Positions 3,589 through 29,699 of a DNA stretch of 33,922 bases are shown here, piece by piece; position 1 is the first letter of the stretch; each line of letters begins with the position of its first letter. The translations under genes were made by a program, and so were the position numbers. Source of the DNA: an uncultured archaeon (GTDB lineage Archaea; Asgardarchaeota; Lokiarchaeia; Sigyniarchaeales; SOKP01); NCBI GenBank assembly GCA_964388035.1, contig CAYLZE010000050.1, forward strand, positions 1 to 33,922. Reading direction: 5' to 3'. The notes below the pieces were generated by a model. That model worked only from the letters and a program-made list of their open reading frames with translations. It was not told the origin of the DNA and made no database searches.

Positions 3589-3819
3589 TTATAGGGAAGA
3601 TAACTCGCGAATGAGATAATCTTCTGCTAATTCTGGCTTTATTTCTTCTACTTTTTCAATTTTTAATTGTCTTCTAAGAATTCCAATACTAGTGATTTGG
3701 CAGAGAACTTTTTCAATCGCATTTTCTTCTTTTAAAGCCCTTACTTCTTTACGAAACAAGTATTTTTTCCGATTCTTTACGTAGGTTCCAGTAACTCGAA
3801 ATATTTTTATTTCCGACAT
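3589..3819 (-). CDS. rplX: 50S ribosomal protein LX (eL20/L18Ae)
   Basis: KIFRVTG...FRKEVRALKEENAIEKV; lies between eIF6 and pfdA. Confidence 0.88.
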   Translation of the reverse strand: MSEIKIFRVTGTYVKNRKKYLFRKEVRALKEENAIEKVLCQITSIGILRRQLKIEKVEEIKPELAEDYLIRELSSL

Positions 3820-9830: not shown

Positions 9831-10964
9831 TTACATGTTGAATACTTCTTTTACAATATTTTCAACAGGATTAAATATGGAGAGATCTCCATCAAAATTA
9901 AGTAACACGTTTAAATAAATGGTTTCAATTCTATCTGTAAACTCTTTCAAATAGGATATCACGTTTTCAATTTCCTTGTTGCAAATTAAAACTAGTATGA
10001 TTAAGTCACTGGTGTAAATGTAAATTACATTTCCCCCCTTTTTAAAGCTTGATAATCCTTGTTGTTTAGAATTTGTTATTTCCTTTATGAAGAGATCAGC
10101 GGAAGTAATAGCCCCCGAGATTAGATATTGAGAAGATTCTGAAGGAGTTTTGGATTCAATGAAAGATTGATGAAATAACGTAAGTCCTCCCCTATTCATG
10201 AGGAAAATCTCTTCGATATTTTGTTTAAAATCAACTTCTGAGTAGGAAGGAACTTTAAAGAAAAAGAAAAATAATATTACTAAAGAAATAAATTGGAAAA
10301 TAGAACCATATATCTTTACTTCTAATCCATAGGTTGTAATCATCACATCCATGCTCAAAAAGATACCCACTATAAAAAAGATTACAGAAATGATGAACAT
10401 GGACCTGCCTAAAAGAATGATTCTCCTTTTTTTTATCCTTTTCATGACATCAAGGAAATAAAAAATTAATACTGTATAAAAATAAATATTAAATAGGATA
10501 GCAAACACGAGCGCCCAATCTAGATTAAAGAAAAATAAGAATATAAAAACGCCAATCCATATTAGAGAGACAAATGTGAATAAATACTTCTTATATAAGA
10601 CTTTTTTGGCCTTTTCTACTAGAAAAAGAAATGTTATTACCATTACCATCATGAAGAAATTGCCCGAGCTAATGATCAAAGATCTATCACTGCCGGTATT
10701 CCAAATGTAAAAGGGAGTCTGGACATCATCCGTTAAATAGTAATTCCCAATTATTATCAATACCTTCATGACTGAAAAGCCAAGATAAAAAAAAGCAAAT
10801 CCTAAATCGGAATTCTCTTTGATAATTCCTTTTTTTTGCTTGTATTTTAAGAAGAAAATAAAACTGAATTCGAGATAAATTATGAGAGAGATCCACTCAA
10901 AAATAAGCAAGGGAAATCTTAAAGATCCTGAAATTGGAAATTCAGTGAAAACCATTTTTATCAC
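9831..10964 (-). CDS. Multi-pass (~7 TM) membrane protein with C-terminal longin-like domain, type A
   Basis: ~235 aa hydrophobic region, then IEEIFLMNRGGLTLF...LISGAITS...FDGDLSIF; paralog of 12207..13328. Confidence 0.7.
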   Translation of the reverse strand: MIKMVFTEFPISGSLRFPLLIFEWISLIIYLEFSFIFFLKYKQKKGIIKENSDLGFAFFYLGFSVMKVLIIIGNYYLTDDVQTPFYIWNTGSDRSLIISSGNFFMMVMVITFLFLVEKAKKVLYKKYLFTFVSLIWIGVFIFLFFFNLDWALVFAILFNIYFYTVLIFYFLDVMKRIKKRRIILLGRSMFIISVIFFIVGIFLSMDVMITTYGLEVKIYGSIFQFISLVILFFFFFKVPSYSEVDFKQNIEEIFLMNRGGLTLFHQSFIESKTPSESSQYLISGAITSADLFIKEITNSKQQGLSSFKKGGNVIYIYTSDLIILVLICNKEIENVISYLKEFTDRIETIYLNVLLNFDGDLSIFNPVENIVKEVFNM

Positions 10965-12109
10965 CTCAAAATATTGGCTATTAAAACGTCAAAACTTCTA
11001 AATAGTTTATCTTGATCTTCTTTCAAGGAATCCAAACTTACTAATATATCCTTAAAAAAGGTCTCAAATTGAATGCGAATGGTTTTTAATAAGTGATTGA
11101 AACTTTTTAGGTCTTTTTTCACCAATAAAACATAAGTAATAAAGGTGGGGTGGACACCACGCTCCAATAAAATTACAGAATTTTCTTGATTGATCTGATT
11201 AACTTCTTCCTCAGTAGTATCTGTTAGAATGGACATTATTGTTTCAATTCCGGCAATTCCTCCTGAAAACAACACATCTTTGGTATTTTGAATACTTCCT
11301 TTATTTATAAAATAATCGTGATTCTTCAGAGCTGATTCGAAATCGCAAAAATACAAACACGCGTTATTAATTCGATTAACAATAAATAGCTTGATTAGAT
11401 TTTCACGGTAATTAAACTCGTACAATGGGGGGAAATTATACGCAGAAGCAAATAAAATGATGAATCCCGTCGATAAAACTGCAATCCCAATAAAGTAGAA
11501 GAGTTCATTAATACCAGGAGGGAGGATACCTAATCCTACTTGTACTGCGAAGACTAAAGCAATGATGGCGGTGATTTCACCTATTAAAAAACGGCTGAAA
11601 CGCATTTTAATACTTCCCACTGTTTTTTTAATTAAATTGAATTGCAAATAAAAAATATATAAAATACTCATGACCATGAAAGCTAGGGAAACTCTAAAGA
11701 TAATGGAATCATTTGATAAAAAAAAGTTCCCAAGTATGGGAAAAAGATTGAGCACCATTAGTGTTCTACTAATTTTAACGTTAAGAATTTGAGTGAAGTT
11801 TTTGTTGGCAATGAAAATCAAGAATGCAATTGGAGAGGCAATCGCAAATGACCACCCCATTTTAGAGAAAAGCGTTTTAATCAGAGGGTCTGTTTGAAAT
11901 AATCGAGCATTATTGATGAAAAAAGTGCCTACAATTATTAAAAGAGATAACATCCCATACGAAAGCAAAATTCGATTCAAATATAAATTCTTATCCCGCA
12001 ATTTATAATATTGAAGAAAGAAGTAAATGGATAATTGAACTCCAATGCTAATTGGTGCTAAATAAAATAAGAACTGTAATTCTTGCGATATTGTAATGTC
12101 GAGAAGCAT
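10961..12109 (-). CDS. Multi-pass (~7 TM) membrane protein with C-terminal longin-like domain, type B
   Basis: Hydrophobic N-half; LIKLFIVN...LFSGGIAGI...IRIQFETFFKDIL; paralog of 13340..14512. Confidence 0.7.
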   Translation of the reverse strand: MLLDITISQELQFLFYLAPISIGVQLSIYFFLQYYKLRDKNLYLNRILLSYGMLSLLIIVGTFFINNARLFQTDPLIKTLFSKMGWSFAIASPIAFLIFIANKNFTQILNVKISRTLMVLNLFPILGNFFLSNDSIIFRVSLAFMVMSILYIFYLQFNLIKKTVGSIKMRFSRFLIGEITAIIALVFAVQVGLGILPPGINELFYFIGIAVLSTGFIILFASAYNFPPLYEFNYRENLIKLFIVNRINNACLYFCDFESALKNHDYFINKGSIQNTKDVLFSGGIAGIETIMSILTDTTEEEVNQINQENSVILLERGVHPTFITYVLLVKKDLKSFNHLLKTIRIQFETFFKDILVSLDSLKEDQDKLFRSFDVLIANILR

Positions 12110-12206
12110 TATTTCCCTCGAAAACTTTTTTATTGGACCTAATTACTTAATGGTGGGTCAATAATTAAATCTATATAAAAAAATCATTTATCTCAAATTG
12201 GGGCTT

Positions 12207-13328
12207 TTATTTCTTAATTAATTCATTTACCATGTTATCAACGGATAGAAAGATGGTTAAATCCCCATCCCATGCTTTTAGAATTTGACTGTAAAGCAGT
12301 TCAAATTTCTCAACAAAATCTTTTAAAAATAACTTAATCATGTTAAACTCCTCCGTGCAAAATATGACACCAGCTACCCCTTCTCCCGCATATGTAATAA
12401 CTGTTTTTTCTCGTTTTTTAATGACAGAAATACCTTCTGTCTCAGGTCGGATGAGTTCTTTCAACATGATATTAACAGATGTTATCGCTCCAGATACGAG
12501 AAGATCTTCCTGGTGATCTTCATGAGTACCTAAAAAAGATTTATGATATAAGGGTATGCCAGAACTAGCAATTATATAAATCTCTTCAATATTATCCTGC
12601 CAATTAAATTCAGAAAAAGGTGGCAATCCAAAAAAGAATAAAGCAATAAGTCCTAAAGAAATTAATTGAAAAATCGCCCCATATAAACGAATAATGAGAC
12701 CAAAAAGATCAATTAAAAAATCGGTAGTAAATAAGAAACCGATAACCAATAAACCAAATCCTGGAACAACCTTGAGAAAAGCCATGAATAATTTTTCCCT
12801 ATTTTTGACTTTTCTAGCGAAATTAGTAAGATATACTAATAAAAAGATTACAAACCATGGCCAAAACAAGTAAGTGATGAATTGTGTAATTGTAATATCA
12901 ATTAAAAAAAATATAGCAAAAGTAATTGATATTATGAAGAATATAATAGAAAAGAAATGTTTTCTAAATAATAAGATCTGATTTTTTTCAATAAAATAGA
13001 TAAAAAAAAACGCACCAATCATGATAGTAAAATATCCACAATTTAAAAAAATAAATCTCATGCTGCCTCTTGGCCAAAAGAAAAAGGGGCTCACAATTTG
13101 ATCTGAAGAATAATAATCACTTATAATATACCACATGTACATTAAAGAATAACCAAAAAATAAGGAAGAAAATCCCATCTCTTGATAATTTCTAATTTCT
13201 TTTTTTTGGTGTCTATAACGTAACAGGAAAATTAATCCCATTTCAAAAATAATAAAAGAAAAAATCCATTCGATTGTAAGTAGTACTTCCCTTAAGTTTC
13301 CACTGATCGGAAATTCCGCTAATAACAT
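12207..13328 (-). CDS. Multi-pass (~7 TM) membrane protein with C-terminal longin-like domain, type A
   Basis: Shares EFPISG.LR, NIEEI, SGAITS and DGDL.IF with 9831..10964. Confidence 0.7.
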   Translation of the reverse strand: MLLAEFPISGNLREVLLTIEWIFSFIIFEMGLIFLLRYRHQKKEIRNYQEMGFSSLFFGYSLMYMWYIISDYYSSDQIVSPFFFWPRGSMRFIFLNCGYFTIMIGAFFFIYFIEKNQILLFRKHFFSIIFFIISITFAIFFLIDITITQFITYLFWPWFVIFLLVYLTNFARKVKNREKLFMAFLKVVPGFGLLVIGFLFTTDFLIDLFGLIIRLYGAIFQLISLGLIALFFFGLPPFSEFNWQDNIEEIYIIASSGIPLYHKSFLGTHEDHQEDLLVSGAITSVNIMLKELIRPETEGISVIKKREKTVITYAGEGVAGVIFCTEEFNMIKLFLKDFVEKFELLYSQILKAWDGDLTIFLSVDNMVNELIKK

Positions 13329-13339
13329 GTGTTTAACTC

Positions 13340-14512
13340 CTATTGATTTAAAAAATTTTGAATAAAAATATCAAAGCTAACAAATAATTGCTCCTGATCT
13401 TTATCAAATTGAGATAAATTGACTAATATCTCCTTAAAAAAGGATTCAAATTGGAATTTAATGCTCTCCAAAAAGTGCCTAATACTATTCAAATCTTTCT
13501 TGACAATGAGCGCAAAAATCAAGGGGACAGAATAAATTTCAGAATAATCTAAAAGAATGTAATCTTCACCCTGCATGATCTTACTGATTTTTTCCTCCCC
13601 CGTGTGAGTTATGCTAGAAATGATTTCCTGCACTCCTGAAATTCCGCCCGGAAAAATTTGCTTGGAAAATTCTTCTCTCTCCTCTGTTTTCTCTTTTTCA
13701 TTAAAGAATTTTAATTGATGTGCTGAAAAATCGTAACTAAATAATAACTTAGCATTTTTTTGATTAATAATAAATAACTTGCGTAATTGTTCCCTCCATT
13801 CGATTTCATAAATGACCGGGAAATTATATACCGCAAAAAATGTAATTAGAAATCCCCCGAAGAGAGCGAGGTTGGTGATTATAGTAAATAACCCTTCATT
13901 TTGAATAACCAAAAATCCCAACGTAAGCTTGGATCTCATGATTAGCGACAAAACAATGATCATTTGACCGACAATTATTAAAATGGTCTTAAGCTTTATA
14001 GTAGAAACTAAAAATCTCGCCAATTTTATTTGAAAAATTAATATATAACCCCCCACAATAAGGACAATTAGGGAAAAGAAAAGAAATAGTACCATTTGTT
14101 CTGTCGATGGAATAATCACCAGAATAACTACTGAAATAATTGTCATGCTCATGAGGTACTTTATCCAACGTAAATTAATTATATTTGAAAATTCTTGTAA
14201 ATTTATGAAATATAAAAAAATAGCGGGAGATAGGAAGAAAAGTACGTATGCTATTTTTGTCATTATTTCCGAGAATCCAAGACTCGAAATGACATATTTA
14301 TTTAAAGTGGTTATCAATATACCCATTAAAATAAAAAGTAAAAAGGTGCCGTGAGCGACTAGGAATTTATTTAAATGCAGTTTTTCATCCTTAATCTTAT
14401 AATATCGATAAAAATAATAAAAAACTAACTGACTTCCCAATACAATTATCATTAATGAAAAATTGTAATCTACTTCTGCGATAGTATTAAATTGAGCGAA
14501 AATAATTCCCAA
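13340..14512 (-). CDS. Multi-pass (~7 TM) membrane protein with C-terminal longin-like domain, type B
   Basis: Shares YNFP..YE..RE.L.KLFI.N, GGI.G, VKKDL.S, QFE.FFK.ILV.L with 10961..12109; TTG start. Confidence 0.7.
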   Translation of the reverse strand: MGIIFAQFNTIAEVDYNFSLMIIVLGSQLVFYYFYRYYKIKDEKLHLNKFLVAHGTFLLFILMGILITTLNKYVISSLGFSEIMTKIAYVLFFLSPAIFLYFINLQEFSNIINLRWIKYLMSMTIISVVILVIIPSTEQMVLFLFFSLIVLIVGGYILIFQIKLARFLVSTIKLKTILIIVGQMIIVLSLIMRSKLTLGFLVIQNEGLFTIITNLALFGGFLITFFAVYNFPVIYEIEWREQLRKLFIINQKNAKLLFSYDFSAHQLKFFNEKEKTEEREEFSKQIFPGGISGVQEIISSITHTGEEKISKIMQGEDYILLDYSEIYSVPLIFALIVKKDLNSIRHFLESIKFQFESFFKEILVNLSQFDKDQEQLFVSFDIFIQNFLNQ

Positions 14513-18577: not shown

Positions 18578-18879
18578 GATTAAATAATTTTTCTTCTTTT
18601 TATTTTTATTTGTCATTAATATCCTTAGTGTTTGAACTTTTGAATGGATTAATTTGAATTTATAAAAAGATTAAGAGCTAAATATAGCATTATTTGAAAG
18701 TGTTGATTACTATTTCCCTTGATTTTTTTTATTAAAAAAATATTCAATTATGATGCTCTCCAACCGAATTACCTTAAATTAACTGTCTTTCTTATTAATA
18801 AAATAAATAAAATAAATACAAATTAATCAAATGGATGATTTTAAATATTTAAAATAATTGATAAAAAAGTCAAAATAAT

Positions 18880-20087
18880 ATGAAAGCAATTGAATTAAAA
18901 GCAAAATGGGACCCTAAACCGAATTTTAAATTAGGACCTAAAGATATCGAAGGAAAATTAACATATTTAGGTTCACAAGTATGGAGAAATCCTTCGATAA
19001 ATGTGGTGGAAAAACAAAAGCCAACGATTAAGGCTAATGAGGTACTAATTAAGGTGAAACGATGTGGAAATCTTGAAAATTATTTTTCAAGACCATAATA
19101 TGTGGTTCCGATGTGCACATGGCGCAAACACATGAAGACGGATATATATTTTATCCCGGTCTTACTGCCTTTCCCGTAACTCTTGGACATGAATTTTCAG
19201 GAGAAGTCTCTGAAGTGGGGGAAAAAGCCATCAATAAAAGAACGGGCAAACCATATGAACTCGGAGAACCAGTCACAGTAGAAGAAATGGCCTGGTGTGG
19301 AGAGTGTAGACCATGCTGCGATGGATTTCCAAACCACTGCGAGCGACTTCAAGAAATAGGTTTTTCAATTGATGGTGCATTTGCTGAATACATCGCAGCC
19401 CCCGCAAAATTATGCTGGAGTTTGAAAAAATTACAGGGAAAATATGAGGATATTTATAAAATAGGAAGTTTGGTGGAACCGACATCGGTTGCGTATAACG
19501 CCGTCATCGAACGGGGAGGTGGCATACGCCCGGGAGAAAATGTTATTATTTTAGGAGGAGGTCCAATTGGCATTGCTGCAACGGCAATTTTGAAAAGAGC
19601 AGGGGCTGGTATTTGTATTTTATCGGAACCGAATGAGCATAGAGCTCGCTTGGCAAGGAAAATGGGTGCCGATTATATTATTGATCCCTCAAAAGAGAAT
19701 TTTGTTGAAAAAGTTAAAGAATATACCGATAGAGAGGGGGCTGCTATCTATTTAGAAGCAACGGGACTTCCTCATATAGTTACTGATGACATCCAGAATG
19801 CTATTTGGGAATGTAAAGCAGTTAATAGTACCGTTGTTATTGTCGCCAGAGCAGAGCAGAGAATGCCTATAATTGGTGAATATTTTCAAGTAAAAAGGGC
19901 TCGAATAGTTGGTTCACAGGGTCACAGTGGACATGGGACGTTTCCTAATGTCATTAGTTGCATGGCCACGGGAATGGACATGTCTCCCATGATAACAAAG
20001 GAGATAAAGCTCGAAGAAGTAAGTGAAAATCTAAAAAGACTTCAAACCGACAGAGAAAACTGCAAGATATCCGCTAAATTAGGATAA
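18880..20087 (+). CDS. iolM: Scyllo-inosose 3-dehydrogenase (Zn-dependent MDR), split by a 29-nt BHB intron; join(18880..19069,19099..20087), 392 aa
   Basis: N-terminus AKWDPKPNFKLGPKDIEGKLTYLGSQVWR closely resembles Thermotoga IolM as I recall it. Spliced motif KRCGICGSDVHM; GHEFSG; structural-Zn CGECRPC...C; GGGPIG. Confidence 0.9.
19070..19098 (+). other. Predicted BHB-type mRNA intron in iolM (29 nt)
   Basis: Helix GUGG(19064-67)/CCAU(19093-96); bulges AA|A and AA|U; perfect 9-bp intron stem UCUUGAAAA/UUUUCAAGA; exon pairs AU/AU. Confidence 0.92.
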
Positions 20088-20162
20088 CCGTGAGGCTTTT
20101 AAAATCTTACCTTTTCAATTACTTTTTTTCATTAAAATTTAATACTCCCATTGGATTTATCA

Positions 20163-20984
20163 TTAAAAAACCTTCAATATTAAACTTAGATATTCCATGC
20201 TAGATTTTGCTACTTCTTCAAAAGATGGTTTCATGATTGTCTCAATTGATGCATAACCTTGATAACCAGAATCTTCAAAGATATTCAAGAAAGCTTTAAA
20301 ATCAAAATGCCCCGTTCCAGGAGCTCTTCTGGTACAATCTGATAAATGAATGTGTGAAACCAGGGGTGCGATTTTTACCAGATAATTCCATATAAAACCG
20401 GGATCCTCCTCTAAATGAGTATGAAATGAATCGATTAATAATTTAAGATTATCTGAGCCGATCTTTTCAATCAAATTAACCGCCTCCGATATGGAATTAT
20501 AGGAATCCATCTCAAAACTATTAATGGGTTCAAACACGAGCTCTACATCGTAGAGTTCTGCATTTCTACAACATTCCTTTAAGGAAGATTCAATGTTTAA
20601 TCGTTCTTTTTTGGGATTGCTGTGATAGCTATACCTCCCTCTAATTAAACCAATAATAACTTTTGCATTAAATTCTTTAGCAAATTTAATATATTCGCTA
20701 ATTCTAGCAATGGCTTTTTCTCGCATTTGCATTTCATGATGGCCTAAAGAGTATCCAAATCGCAGAAAAGTGCTACCTGTACCTAAAGCTGAAAGTTCCA
20801 TATCATAAGTTTCCAGAAGTTCATTAATTTCCGCTATATTGACTTTCTCCGGCTCCAATAAGCTCAATTCAATTCCATCGTAATTCAATGATTTCAGAAA
20901 GTCTAATAGAGAAGTAAATTTCTTGTTGATCTCTTCTTGATTCAACTTTTTTTCATTTAAAGAAGAGACTATACTAAGTTTCAT
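20163..20984 (-). CDS. iolO: Sugar phosphate isomerase/epimerase, likely 5-keto-L-gluconate epimerase
   Basis: YDGIEL, IIGLIRG, EPINSFE, DSFH, HIHLSD..RRAPGTGH; located inside the iol cluster. Confidence 0.78.
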   Translation of the reverse strand: MKLSIVSSLNEKKLNQEEINKKFTSLLDFLKSLNYDGIELSLLEPEKVNIAEINELLETYDMELSALGTGSTFLRFGYSLGHHEMQMREKAIARISEYIKFAKEFNAKVIIGLIRGRYSYHSNPKKERLNIESSLKECCRNAELYDVELVFEPINSFEMDSYNSISEAVNLIEKIGSDNLKLLIDSFHTHLEEDPGFIWNYLVKIAPLVSHIHLSDCTRRAPGTGHFDFKAFLNIFEDSGYQGYASIETIMKPSFEEVAKSSMEYLSLILKVF

Positions 20985-21356
20985 GATTTACCTTATTCCA
21001 TTTAAATTCCTCATTTTTTGTAAATTAATATCACTTTTAATATATTCGCTAAAATTATATTAAAAATTTATTACCATTTGATTGAAAAAAATAGGAAATT
21101 TAATTTTCACCTTACCGTGCTTTAAACACAATAAAAGCATATTGAACACGTTTTCTTAAAAATCTTAGCTCAATCAAACCCTTCCAATAGACTTGCATTA
21201 GATGATATTAATAAAGGTTCTATTTATTCTTTCTTTTATTCTAAATTTATTCATGCTCCCATGCTCACGATATTTTTTCAATACATAAAAATTTGAATGC
21301 ACTCGAATTATATTAATTAAATAGTTAAAAAATTTAGGAAAGGTGAAATAAAAAAA

Positions 21357-22354
21357 ATGACCGATTGGAATTTACCTCCTAAAGGAGGGCATATGGACCT
21401 CCCTGATGGAATCTATCTTCAAACCATGAATATTGCGGAAATAAGGGAGCGGGTTAAAAAAAATGATGTAATAATAATTCCCGTGGGCTCAACGGAAAAT
21501 CACGGTCCTGCGGCATGTATTGGAGAAGACACTTTTTTAGTAACCCGAATGGCAGAATTAGTAGCTCAAAAAACGGGATGCACGGTAGCACAGCCAACTT
21601 GGTATGGATCTCACCCATATCATCACGTGGGAATGCCTGGATCGATTATCGTGCCAGAAGAAATCTTTAAAGGTTTATTAAGAGCTGTAATGGCAGGTTG
21701 TTGGAATATGGGATTCAGGAAGCAAATAAAAACTTCTTTTTTTGCTTGAAAATGATCCTCCTGAATGGACATGGTCAGGAATATGTTATTCCCTCTGCCA
21801 TCCATGAATTTGCTAAAATTTATCAATTACCCATGGTCGTGTGTAATGTAAATTGGTATCATGCCATTCCCGAATATTGCAAAGATAAAGCACATGGTGG
21901 TCCCTTTGAAACCCCTTTTATCCACGCAGATGAGGCTGAAACTTCCTTTTCAATGACTTTATTCCCTGAAATGATTAAAAAGATCGATCTTAGTCGGGAT
22001 AATAAAATACAAGGTTGGATGCCTGAAGGACACGTGGATAAAGCGGGAAATGTATATAATAAACCAATTAAATGGTATGGGCAAGTAGGATTTAGTCCAA
22101 TTGAAGTCTCAGCTTATCCAGAAGGGCATGTTGGTTCTCCAAGTAAAGCCACTTTTGAAAAAGGAAAACCTGGAATGGACGCGCTTCTGAATTACTTGGA
22201 AAAGTTGGTTAATGATATTTTAAAAACTTTTCCCCCCGGGAAATTACCTCCGATTGAAGGCATTACTCAACGAGACCCTGAAGAAATACAAGCTTACTTG
22301 AAAGGACCTCTTAATGGAGGAAAAAGCATATATGAATTGCGATATCCTCCTTAA
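21357..22354 (+). CDS. iolN: 3-dehydro-scyllo-inosose hydrolase (creatininase family), split by a 29-nt BHB intron; join(21357..21721,21751..22354), 322 aa
   Basis: PVGSTENHG, GEDT, spliced GFRKMILLNGHGQE, HADEAETS; two overlapping ORFs each carry half of the domain. Confidence 0.88.
21722..21750 (+). other. Predicted BHB-type mRNA intron in iolN (29 nt)
   Basis: Helix CAGG(21716-19)/CUUG(21745-48); bulges AA|G and AA|A; intron stem CAAA/UUUG; exon helix GGAUU/GAUCC. A 29-nt deletion is what frame and motif spacing require. Confidence 0.8.
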
Positions 22355-22421
22355 TCTTTTTTTTTAATTTAATATTTAATAAAATAAAAAGAAATAGTAA
22401 GAAGTTAAGAAAATCAAGATA

Positions 22422-25562: not shown

Positions 25563-26327
25563 TTAAATCCGTTTTATTGGATAAGCAACATTAGGGCGTT
25601 TTATGATAAAGGATGCATCCAGATCATTAGCCATGCGTTCTGCTATCTTAGATGGGATGCCTAACGATAAGTTATTCTGAGGAAACCAATTGTTTCCAGT
25701 GGGATCAGTTGGGCCAATAATTACAATTTCATTATGTTCATTGGTTAATCCCGCAGGGTAAGTTACAAAAGATGCACATGAAGGGCCCCAAGGCATTTTT
25801 ATATTAAATCCATCCTCCGGTTGGAAATATGCCAAAGAACAAAGATTTCTTATTTGTTCTGAATAACCAAAACATAAAAAGGACCTAACATCCTCACTTA
25901 CTCCTGCAAAGGAATCGCTTTTTTGGATCACGGTATATTTACTAAGAGGGGTAATTTTCCCAACAGACATTAGTTGTTTATCCGCAAGCTCCGGATTTGC
26001 AAGTAAATATTCTGCAGCTCCGCCTCTATAATCCTCCGAACCTGTGGATATAAAGTATTTTAATTGGGAGACAAAGGGTTTATATCCAAGCCACGCTTGT
26101 CCTCCGGGACAGCTGCCTTCTAACACCTCTTCTCCTATATAAATCGTATTAATTTCCTCAGAAATAGATAAATTGTAAATTGCATTGGCAATGCAACGAT
26201 TATAATCTCTTATAGGGATCCCATTATCTGGAATGCTTTCTGAACCGTAAATACATAACGGAGCAGTTTCCAATCTCCCCGCTTGTTTCAATTTGTTGCC
26301 AATTTCATTAATATTTAAACCAACCAT
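25563..26327 (-). CDS. DUF169-family protein
   Basis: Cys-containing motifs RCI, SCPGG, PWGPSCASFVTYP, GPTDPT. Confidence 0.7.
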   Translation of the reverse strand: MVGLNINEIGNKLKQAGRLETAPLCIYGSESIPDNGIPIRDYNRCIANAIYNLSISEEINTIYIGEEVLEGSCPGGQAWLGYKPFVSQLKYFISTGSEDYRGGAAEYLLANPELADKQLMSVGKITPLSKYTVIQKSDSFAGVSEDVRSFLCFGYSEQIRNLCSLAYFQPEDGFNIKMPWGPSCASFVTYPAGLTNEHNEIVIIGPTDPTGNNWFPQNNLSLGIPSKIAERMANDLDASFIIKRPNVAYPIKRI

Positions 26328-26639
26328 AAATAAATTTAATGATTATTAGCATTAATATATTTCATCATATTGATTAGTTCGATGAAAGGAGTATCTTGGG
26401 AGGGATTAATCCCTTTTCATGAGGAATTTGCCCAGTTGAAAAATATCGATTTAATCATGGCCCATATTCGTGAAAGCTTTCTTTCACGCTTTTACATGTA
26501 TATCTCCACAATATAGTTTCGATGTGATTTTACTATAAATATGTCTTCTATTTTCTCTATATATTTTATTGAGAAAATAATTTTATGCTAGAGAGAACTT
26601 TCAAATATTAATAGAATAAGAGAAAAGGTGAATGATTGA

Positions 26640-28447: not shown

Positions 28448-28930
28448 ATGTCAGAAAGAGATATTGACTTTTATTTTGAAGCAATTTTAGGATTAATTAT
28501 ATTCAGTTTATTATTTAGCTTTACTTTATTCGCCAATTTTTTAGATAGCTTGAATCCCGATAGTTATTTATATATCAAGTATTCTCCTGATTTTGATACT
28601 TTTATTATTTTAATCTTAATTTTGATGGATATTTTCTTCACATTATACTTTTTGAACCTTTCTTTTAATTTTAGACGTTCCCGGAATCTTAATTTAAGAA
28701 AAAATGAATTATTAATTATACATGACAAGATAAAGATTATAAGTTTCGTCTACTTGCCGCAGAAAGCCATAAAGATTTATTATTTAATTAAGTATTTCAA
28801 TACAAGCATTACTTTGTACATGTTTTTAACATTATTAATAGAGCTCAGTTTGATAAGCTTAATTTTTTATGTTTCATTTCAATTATTAAATGATCAAAGA
28901 GTATCAGAAGTCCTTGATAACGGACCCTAA
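28448..28930 (+). CDS. Hypothetical membrane protein
   Basis: 160-aa ORF with ~3-4 hydrophobic segments; very AT-rich. Confidence 0.45.
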   Translation: MSERDIDFYFEAILGLIIFSLLFSFTLFANFLDSLNPDSYLYIKYSPDFDTFIILILILMDIFFTLYFLNLSFNFRRSRNLNLRKNELLIIHDKIKIISFVYLPQKAIKIYYLIKYFNTSITLYMFLTLLIELSLISLIFYVSFQLLNDQRVSEVLDNGP

Positions 28931-29699
28931 GGATGTGAATTCTTGGATCAATCTTGCAGATGCATTTCTCGATCAAAAAAATTATGAAAAAGCAATTGAA
29001 TGTTATGAAAGGGCAGTAGCTCTCTCTCCCGATGCTTTTTCAGATGTTTGGAATAGCATGGGTCTTGCTTATTCCTATCTATCCGATTACAATAAAGCAA
29101 TTGAATGTTATAAAAAAGCTCTTGAGATTGATCCGGAAGATTCCACCATATTCTACAATTTGGGTTATGCACTGGAAGATACAGAACAGTTGGAAGAGGC
29201 TATATATTATTATGAAAGGGCTTTTGAAATTGATCCCTCAAATGTGGATGCTTTGAATAATTTGGGGTTGTTGTATAAAAATAAAGAACAATATGAGGAA
29301 GCTATTCGATATTATAAATTAGCGATTAAAATTAATCCTGATGCCCCATATTTATATCGAAATCTTGCTTTTATCTATTACGATAAGGGAGATACATCCG
29401 AAGCAATTCAGTGTTATCGGAAAGTATTAGAATTACGACCTAATCACGTAGATAATTGGTTAGATATGGGAGATTTATATTTCAACATGAAGGAGTATGA
29501 TGAAGCTATAAGATGCTTACAAAAAGCTTCAAGTCTGGACCCTGAGAATGAAGAGATTCTTTATTCCCTTAGTATTGTATACGATGAGTGCCAAAATTAT
29601 GAAATGGCGATTAATTTTTTGCAGAAAGTGTTAACAATTAATCCCGATCATGATTTAGCTAAGAATAGTTTGATCAATATACAAGGTAAACTGTCTTAA
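28890..29699 (+). CDS. Tetratricopeptide repeat protein (~7 TPRs)
   Basis: Repeated W/Y.NLG......Y.EAI.CY.KAL.I.P units of 34 aa. Confidence 0.92.
   Translation: MIKEYQKSLITDPKDVNSWINLADAFLDQKNYEKAIECYERAVALSPDAFSDVWNSMGLAYSYLSDYNKAIECYKKALEIDPEDSTIFYNLGYALEDTEQLEEAIYYYERAFEIDPSNVDALNNLGLLYKNKEQYEEAIRYYKLAIKINPDAPYLYRNLAFIYYDKGDTSEAIQCYRKVLELRPNHVDNWLDMGDLYFNMKEYDEAIRCLQKASSLDPENEEILYSLSIVYDECQNYEMAINFLQKVLTINPDHDLAKNSLINIQGKLS

Follow-up and report, generated by a model that had tools for sequence, protein, structure and literature searches.

In the literature searched, cbf5 is the only archaeal gene named as carrying a bulge-helix-bulge (BHB) intron within its coding sequence (PMC7714728, PMC2738675), and the cbf5 introns often use relaxed motifs (PMC2738675). 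The other case described for an mRNA is the intron in the 5' untranslated region of Haloferax volcanii HVO_1309 (PMC7714728), and a preprint on non-canonical introns of Asgard archaea covers tRNA genes only (bioRxiv 10.64898/2026.10.13.758758). Here we analysed a stretch of 33,922 nucleotides (nt) from an uncultured archaeon of the Lokiarchaeia (Sigyniarchaeales, SOKP01; assembly GCA_964388035.1, contig CAYLZE010000050.1, positions 1 to 33,922; hereafter the window). On its plus strand lies iolN, the gene for 3-dehydro-scyllo-inosose hydrolase of the creatininase family, interrupted at 21722-21750 by 29 surplus nt. These are probably an archaeal BHB intron, the removal of which would leave a lysine-methionine (K-M) junction in the protein.

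The iolN insert resembles the crenarchaeal cbf5 introns (Watanabe 2002; Yokobori 2009, PMC2738675) in being short, in lying within a coding sequence and in having a tRNA-type motif that is often relaxed. Both are attributed to a broad-specificity, hetero-oligomeric endonuclease, and both point to lineage-specific gain and loss. Unlike cbf5, however, iolN is an ordinary catabolic gene in an AT-rich host of the Asgard type, its intron would be one of many, and the same-genus relative does not have it; moreover, the splicing of cbf5 has been seen by RT-PCR (reverse transcription PCR), whereas the iolN intron is known here from DNA sequence alone. With HVO_1309 it shares the nature of the substrate, an mRNA presented to the archaeal splicing endonuclease, but the Haloferax intron lies in an untranslated leader with no frame to restore, and has been confirmed both in vivo and in vitro (PMC7714728). 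The Asgard tRNA introns match the iolN insert in size class, in BHB or relaxed motifs, in repeated independent gains and in the presence of a two-subunit EndA. They differ in the constraint on the exon half of the BHB, which comes from the structure of the tRNA in their case and from codons in the iolN mRNA.

The length of the insert, 2 modulo 3, shifts the reading frame directly 5' of the NGHG metal motif. The N-terminal open reading frame (ORF; 21357-21749, frame 0) starts at 21357, ends with ...GFRKQIKTSFFA and is closed by a TGA at 21747-49. The second ORF, in another frame, is open upstream of the ATG at 21752 and continues to 22354, reading MILLNGHGQEY.... Against the IolN model NF041098 (cut-off 245 bits) the first ORF matches positions 1-113 with 208.7 bits and the second positions 111-307 with 287.4 bits, and the Pfam Creatininase model (PF02633) is covered at 2-103 and 103-238, respectively. 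The neighbouring iolG, GPH/MFS transporter, iolM and iolO genes are all intact and together represent an inositol pathway of the Thermotoga type. Because the two halves match adjoining parts of the same models and lie within an iol cluster, we regard them as a single IolN gene interrupted by extra bases. The original prediction, which had placed the insert just before NGHG, agrees with these ORF boundaries and model coordinates, and the sequence and position it gave for the insert were found as described on re-reading.

Deletion of the 29 nt gives one iolN frame of 322 codons with zero stops and no further defect, and its product is 92% identical to the orthologue from the same genus (genome G001). 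Exon 1 (21357-21721) comprises codons 1-121 and the first two bases of codon 122 and carries the E-x-H and D metal ligands, while exon 2 (21751-22354) takes in the third base of that codon and all that follows up to the stop, and starts with MILLNGHG. By analogy with creatininase structures, we take the Glu, His and Asp ligands to lie in exon 1, and the His of NGHG and a later Glu in exon 2; both pieces are thus required for one metal site. The ratio of nonsynonymous to synonymous substitution (dN/dS) against the same-genus orthologue is 0.013 for exon 1 and 0.022 for exon 2, with synonymous sites saturated. A blastn search of the insert against its own genome returned no second copy, and hence it is not a repeat family or a repeated mobile element.

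Contigs assembled from separate public runs were compared with window positions 18850-22400. Record 7 of run X1 (21149-21945) and record 23 of run X3 (21719-21895) have zero differences to the window. Record 30 of run X5, from a 2025 marsh study, covers 21651-21856 at about 97% identity with six other letters and no gap, and reaches at least 31 bases beyond the insert on either side. The run of seven T within the insert is identical in the contigs of these three runs, and is therefore not a homopolymer error. None of the contigs compared holds the joined, insert-free form of the window gene as DNA.

The IolN family was searched in 60 related genomes, and metagenome contigs were added. A full-length, uninterrupted and stop-free IolN (model positions 1-307) is present in 24 of the 60, including the same-genus G001, and the insert in none. 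A further 17 metagenome loci are also uninterrupted, 16 of them with K-M and one with K-I, so that all 41 relatives are free of the insert. Since it is missing from 41 relatives, including one of the same genus, the insert appears to have been gained recently in the lineage of this species, with the pre-insertion allele still visible in relatives. In the metagenome search the same-genus genome remained the closest relative, and a second carrier of the insert was not found. One X3 contig of a relative departs from the window at 21712 and continues GTTTCGCAAGATGATC..., representing an intron-less K-M iolN in the same marsh. This intron-less relative is the more abundant in the X3 marsh sample, and its iolN reads GFRKMILLNG.

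The junction residues in the 24 genomes are either GFRKQILLNGHG or GFRKMILLNGHG, dividing the family into a K-Q and a K-M clade. The consensus given in the original prediction, GFRKQILLNGHG, fits the former; the second clade has K-M, and it is here that the window iolN belongs. All six most similar proteins (87-92% identity) have K-M. In a maximum-likelihood tree of IolN in which the junction residue was masked in every row, the window iolN is sister to G001 (support 100/96) within a clade (96/95) whose other nine members are all K-M, which answers the proposal that the residue be compared in intron-less close relatives. The junction expected after splicing to K-M is AGGAAAATGATC, as distinct, for example, from AGGAAGCAAATC. 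Moreover, the uninterrupted loci L055-L057 read GGATTCAGGAAAATGAT, which matches the window letter for letter once 21722-21750 is deleted. The comparison across relatives thus supports a K-M junction and speaks against the K-Q alternative. Both the intron and its productive K-M register gain indirect support from the insert-free state of all 41 homologues, the K-M of the closest relatives and the occurrence of GGATTCAGGAAAATGAT in three contigs.

In the productive register the predicted motif is centred on a 4-bp helix, in which the exon half H(a), CAGG (21716-21719), pairs at four of four positions, one of them G.U, with the intron half H(b), CUUG (21745-21748). The 5' bulge AAG (21720-21722), as read from the sequence, would be cut after 21721, by a rule checked on five other split genes. 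The 3' bulge AAA (21749-21751) would be cut after 21750, and in the best constrained fold it becomes a 5-nt bulge (21749-21753). The intron hairpin h' (21723-21744; CAAA.U.AAA, a 6-nt loop, UUU.U.UUUG) consists of CAAA (21723-26) paired with UUUG (21741-44) and of AAA paired with UUU, the two stretches being separated by a U.U mismatch, and it can be extended by AAG/CUU at the cost of the 5' bulge. Pairing between the exons is irregular: in constrained folds the 5' strand GGAUU (21711-21715) of helix h faces GAUCC (21754-21758), with pairing from 21754 or 21755 onwards, and GGAU (21711-14) with AUCC (21755-58) gives either one contiguous bp or 4-6 bp beyond an irregular loop. Cleavage behind base two of either bulge, as AA|G and AA|A, would remove 21722-21750 and leave AGG AAA ATG ATC. 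The structure thus combines a 4-bp central helix, two 3-nt bulges with exact restoration of the gene and, among the flanking helices, at least one of 2 bp or more (h', with 4 bp), and it falls in class HBh' by the scheme of the Asgard tRNA-intron preprint (10.64898/2026.10.13.758758).

We tabulated all in-frame deletions of 26, 29, 32 and 35 nt from starts 21712-21735 (n = 95). Five starts (21719-21723) give GFRKMILLNGHG, and only 21722 has four of four central pairs together with 3-nt bulges and an intron helix; owing to a GAA present at either end of the deletion, starts 21719-21722 are equivalent in their product. Four central pairs with an intron helix of at least 3 bp occur in two of the 95 deletions. 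A 44-nt motif using the CCUG copy in exon 2 was rejected, since it has no intron helix and loses KMILL. The original prediction had singled out the productive register as the only one with AA|N at both cuts. This is true of the letters but does not discriminate, as GA|A, GA|G and TA|G occur at the 5' cuts of tRNA introns in this genome.

According to the proposed mechanism, exon CAGG would pair with intron CUUG in the pre-mRNA, leaving a 3-nt bulge on each strand and the intron hairpin beyond the 5' bulge. EndA would cut after the second base of each bulge, and RtcB would join the exons to ...UUC AGG AAA AUG AUC... (G-F-R-K-M-I-L-L-N-G-H-G), the 29-nt product being the only one expected to unite both halves of the metal site. 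We infer cleavage and ligation of the iolN RNA, as well as their sites and efficiency. The machinery is encoded in the metagenome-assembled genome (5.47 Mb, 33% G+C, 7% estimated contamination), which has two EndA paralogues, both above the PF01974 cut-off, and one RtcB. By the residue assignment known for EndA, the Tyr/His/Lys pattern is complete in the paralogue encoded on contig C146, and the catalytic His is missing from that on C33. The splicing endonuclease is probably of the (alpha-beta)2 type, with two subunits and a broad specificity. ARAGORN reports 22 tRNAs, 15 of them intron-bearing, and the tRNA introns with a recognisable BHB measure 23-33 nt, the size class of the iolN insert.

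At least six other genes of the genome, iolM included, carry inserts of 29-32 nt with the same geometry. The putative iolM intron (19070-19098, plus strand), 2.6 kb upstream of iolN, belongs to the same pathway and has the same length of 29 nt and the same geometry. Its motif is a clean hBHBh' (GUGG AA|A, 9-bp hairpin, CCAU AA|U), in which the hairpin is perfect, the exon helix has 2 bp and no alternative register exists. It lies inside the CGICGSD zinc motif, which would be restored by cutting and is continuous in uninterrupted relatives (L021, L022, L023, L026), and the insert is bridged by the contig of record 9 of run X2. The other five genes have inserts of 30 nt each: an FGGY kinase (contig C149, plus strand, 3761-3790, locus L037; Pfam positions 1-78 in the first part and 79-245 in the second), an NAD synthase (4-143 in exon 1, 144-242 in exon 2), an epimerase/dehydratase (1-126 and 135-240), an E2 enzyme (UQ_con, 18-62 and 68-139) and a gene of the nucleoside-phosphorylase family (Glycos_trans_3N 3-61, Glycos_transf_3 11-253). 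In these five the Pfam coordinates abut at the junction predicted from the BHB, exactly or within a few positions. The exon helix has 0-1 pairs in most of them, and because most split genes are without one, HBh' is the usual form of the motif in this genome.

A search for split genes with paralogues, made without reference to the motif, gave 11 sites, five of them with inserts of about 30 nt. Two of these motif-free finds (C4, ~56316-56353; C65, ~26313-26340) show a 4-bp central helix and bulges with an irregular or offset intron helix. These two suggest that the enzyme tolerates a relaxed h'. A genome-wide count of BHB motifs that fuse two ORFs was also attempted and dropped, as controls with shifted cuts equalled the true cuts in number; the scan gave no signal because hairpins between neighbouring genes on the same strand dominate it. 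Hits with paralogue support across the junctions were also mostly background (about 28 of 38), but this screen supplied the curated comparators.

The folding calculations bear out the sliding bulge and the competing registers of the original prediction, more strongly than it had claimed, and add a fourth register. Pairing is possible between UUCAGG (21714-19) and CUUGAA (21745-50), and between AAGCAAA (21720-26) and UUUGCUU (21741-47). As both helices share C21745-U21747, the 3-nt bulge of the 5' strand has four possible positions. CAGG/CUUG is the productive register of 29 nt (bare motif -2.4 kcal/mol; junction AGGAAAATGATCC). UCAG/UUGA would remove 31 nt and shift the frame (-4.6 kcal/mol; AGGAATGATCC), and UUCA/UGAA would remove 33 nt and place a stop right after AGG, as UUC AGG UGA (-6.3 kcal/mol; TTCAGGTGATCC). 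The added register, AUUC/GAAA, with three of four pairs, would remove 35 nt in frame and give a product two residues shorter in which K-M is lost (-6.2 kcal/mol; TTCAGGATCC). The plain extended hairpin of the insert has -6.4 kcal/mol.

Several of our results weigh against a functional intron in iolN. The motif taken alone is only weakly beyond chance, with odds of about 1 in 10 once the five equivalent starts are allowed for, and hence the weight for an intron is carried by the comparative and genome-wide evidence. Furthermore, the minimum-energy fold of 21700-21775 (-15.9 kcal/mol) is not the BHB, but the extended hairpin with a perfect 8-bp helix between AUUCAGGA (21713-21720) and UCCUGAAU in exon 2 (21759-21766), which competes with the BHB fold. 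We also calculated, for a fixed context of 100 nt at 37 C, the Boltzmann share of folds that form all four central pairs and leave the two bulges unpaired. For iolN these are about 1e-5 (29 nt), 1e-4 (31 nt) and 5e-4 (33 nt), placing the nonproductive registers 10-45 times above the productive one at 37 C, and nine comparator introns have 0.01-0.8, at least 1000 times above the productive fold of iolN. The iolM intron, for instance, has a share of 0.05. The BHB is thus not the favoured fold of the iolN precursor, a trait of good substrates rather than a formal criterion. In addition, no RNA run was listed as holding the 998-base iolN query, and the strain differences of the X5 contig within iolN (two synonymous and four mostly conservative replacements) do not show recent purifying selection, being too few and near contig ends. 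The same-genus orthologue is without the 8-bp complement AUUCAGGA/UCCUGAAU and has other codons there (TTT CGA ... TTA CTT).

When each register is folded in its own window at 20 C, the 29-nt register is the most populated of the three, so that the ranking of registers, but not the very low absolute level, depends on context and temperature. Sliding registers are likewise present in three of the seven comparator introns examined for such ambiguity, and for the FGGY kinase intron a frame-breaking 28-nt register is predicted at about twice the share of the productive one. This case indicates that nearest-neighbour energies alone do not predict the cut of the enzyme. Register ambiguity is therefore not special to iolN, but iolN is the clear outlier, with the weakest signal of the ten introns compared in this genome, and its splicing may have a low efficiency or may in part be lost to the 31- and 33-nt registers.

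The main alternative, which we regard as unlikely, is that the insert is or was intron-like but is not accurately removed, which would make iolN a pseudogene of recent origin or leave it with no more than trace expression. It would agree with a productive fold that is the least favoured of ten introns and with nonproductive registers that are predicted to be more populated, as well as with the restriction of the insert to this lineage and the four amino-acid changes among the few strain differences. However, no second defect is found in 322 codons despite saturated synonymous sites (dN/dS around 0.02). The rest of the iol cluster is likewise intact (iolG, transporter, iolM, iolO), the insert is unchanged in a contig from a different study, and a better-populated wrong register is also seen in the FGGY kinase intron. 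A related proposal accepts the BHB intron and holds that, its preferred registers being nonproductive, register choice by the endonuclease or conditions that shift the fold could set the amount of IolN; we consider this doubtful, and more so than poor splicing.

It is very unlikely that the insert is not spliced at all and that ribosomes slip by -1 on U UUU UUU (21737-21743), giving a full-length IolN with ten additional residues (QIKTSFFCLK) before MILLNGHG. In the frame of exon 1 the heptamer conforms perfectly to X XXY YYZ, the -1 frame is open into exon 2 and the seven-T run is the same in the contigs of three runs. However, none of the 41 homologues has an insertion at this place, directly before the His ligand, and the sequence does not qualify as a -1 site. 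The U run moreover forms the 3' arm of an A/U hairpin, and iolM and the other 29-32-nt inserts lack such a heptamer and yet have the BHB geometry in common.

Slightly less probable still is the removal of 29 nt a little downstream (21726-21754 or equivalent) by a mechanism other than BHB splicing, yielding K-Q-I with the junction AGGAAGCAAATCC. The unspliced sequence does read GFRKQI, as in the K-Q clade. The original prediction had held that this deletion fits the protein equally well but has no BHB. The latter is borne out by the K-Q starts (21725-21729), which have 0-1 of four central pairs. As to the protein, iolN is strongly placed in the K-M clade, and a change from Q (CAA) to M (ATG) takes three base changes. 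An assembly or sequencing artefact, conceivable in a metagenome-assembled genome with some estimated contamination, has a negligible probability given that separate runs and studies carry the identical 29 nt gap-free, most clearly in X5 record 30.

Elsewhere in the window, a 160-aa ORF without a Pfam match (28448-28930, plus strand) extends, in a different frame, over the start of the ORF for a TPR-repeat protein (28890-29699, plus strand). The paralogue screen flagged this site as a possible split gene, and no convincing BHB was seen there. Four consecutive ORFs of 373-390 aa on the minus strand (9831-14512) have no Pfam match at E <= 0.001.

A BHB intron in iolN, which we consider the probable reading, would mean that an Asgard-type archaeon has such an element in an ordinary gene of sugar catabolism, close to that of iolM and in addition to at least five in other parts of the genome. 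With the weakest motif of the set and three or four competing registers, iolN would offer a sharp test of how EndA chooses its sites outside tRNA, and of how much mis-splicing is tolerated. If the choice of register does set the level of IolN, this would amount to alternative or regulated splicing of archaeal mRNA in a primitive form. Genes of this kind are annotated as two fragments or as pseudogenes, and the metabolic capacity of these genomes is consequently under-read.
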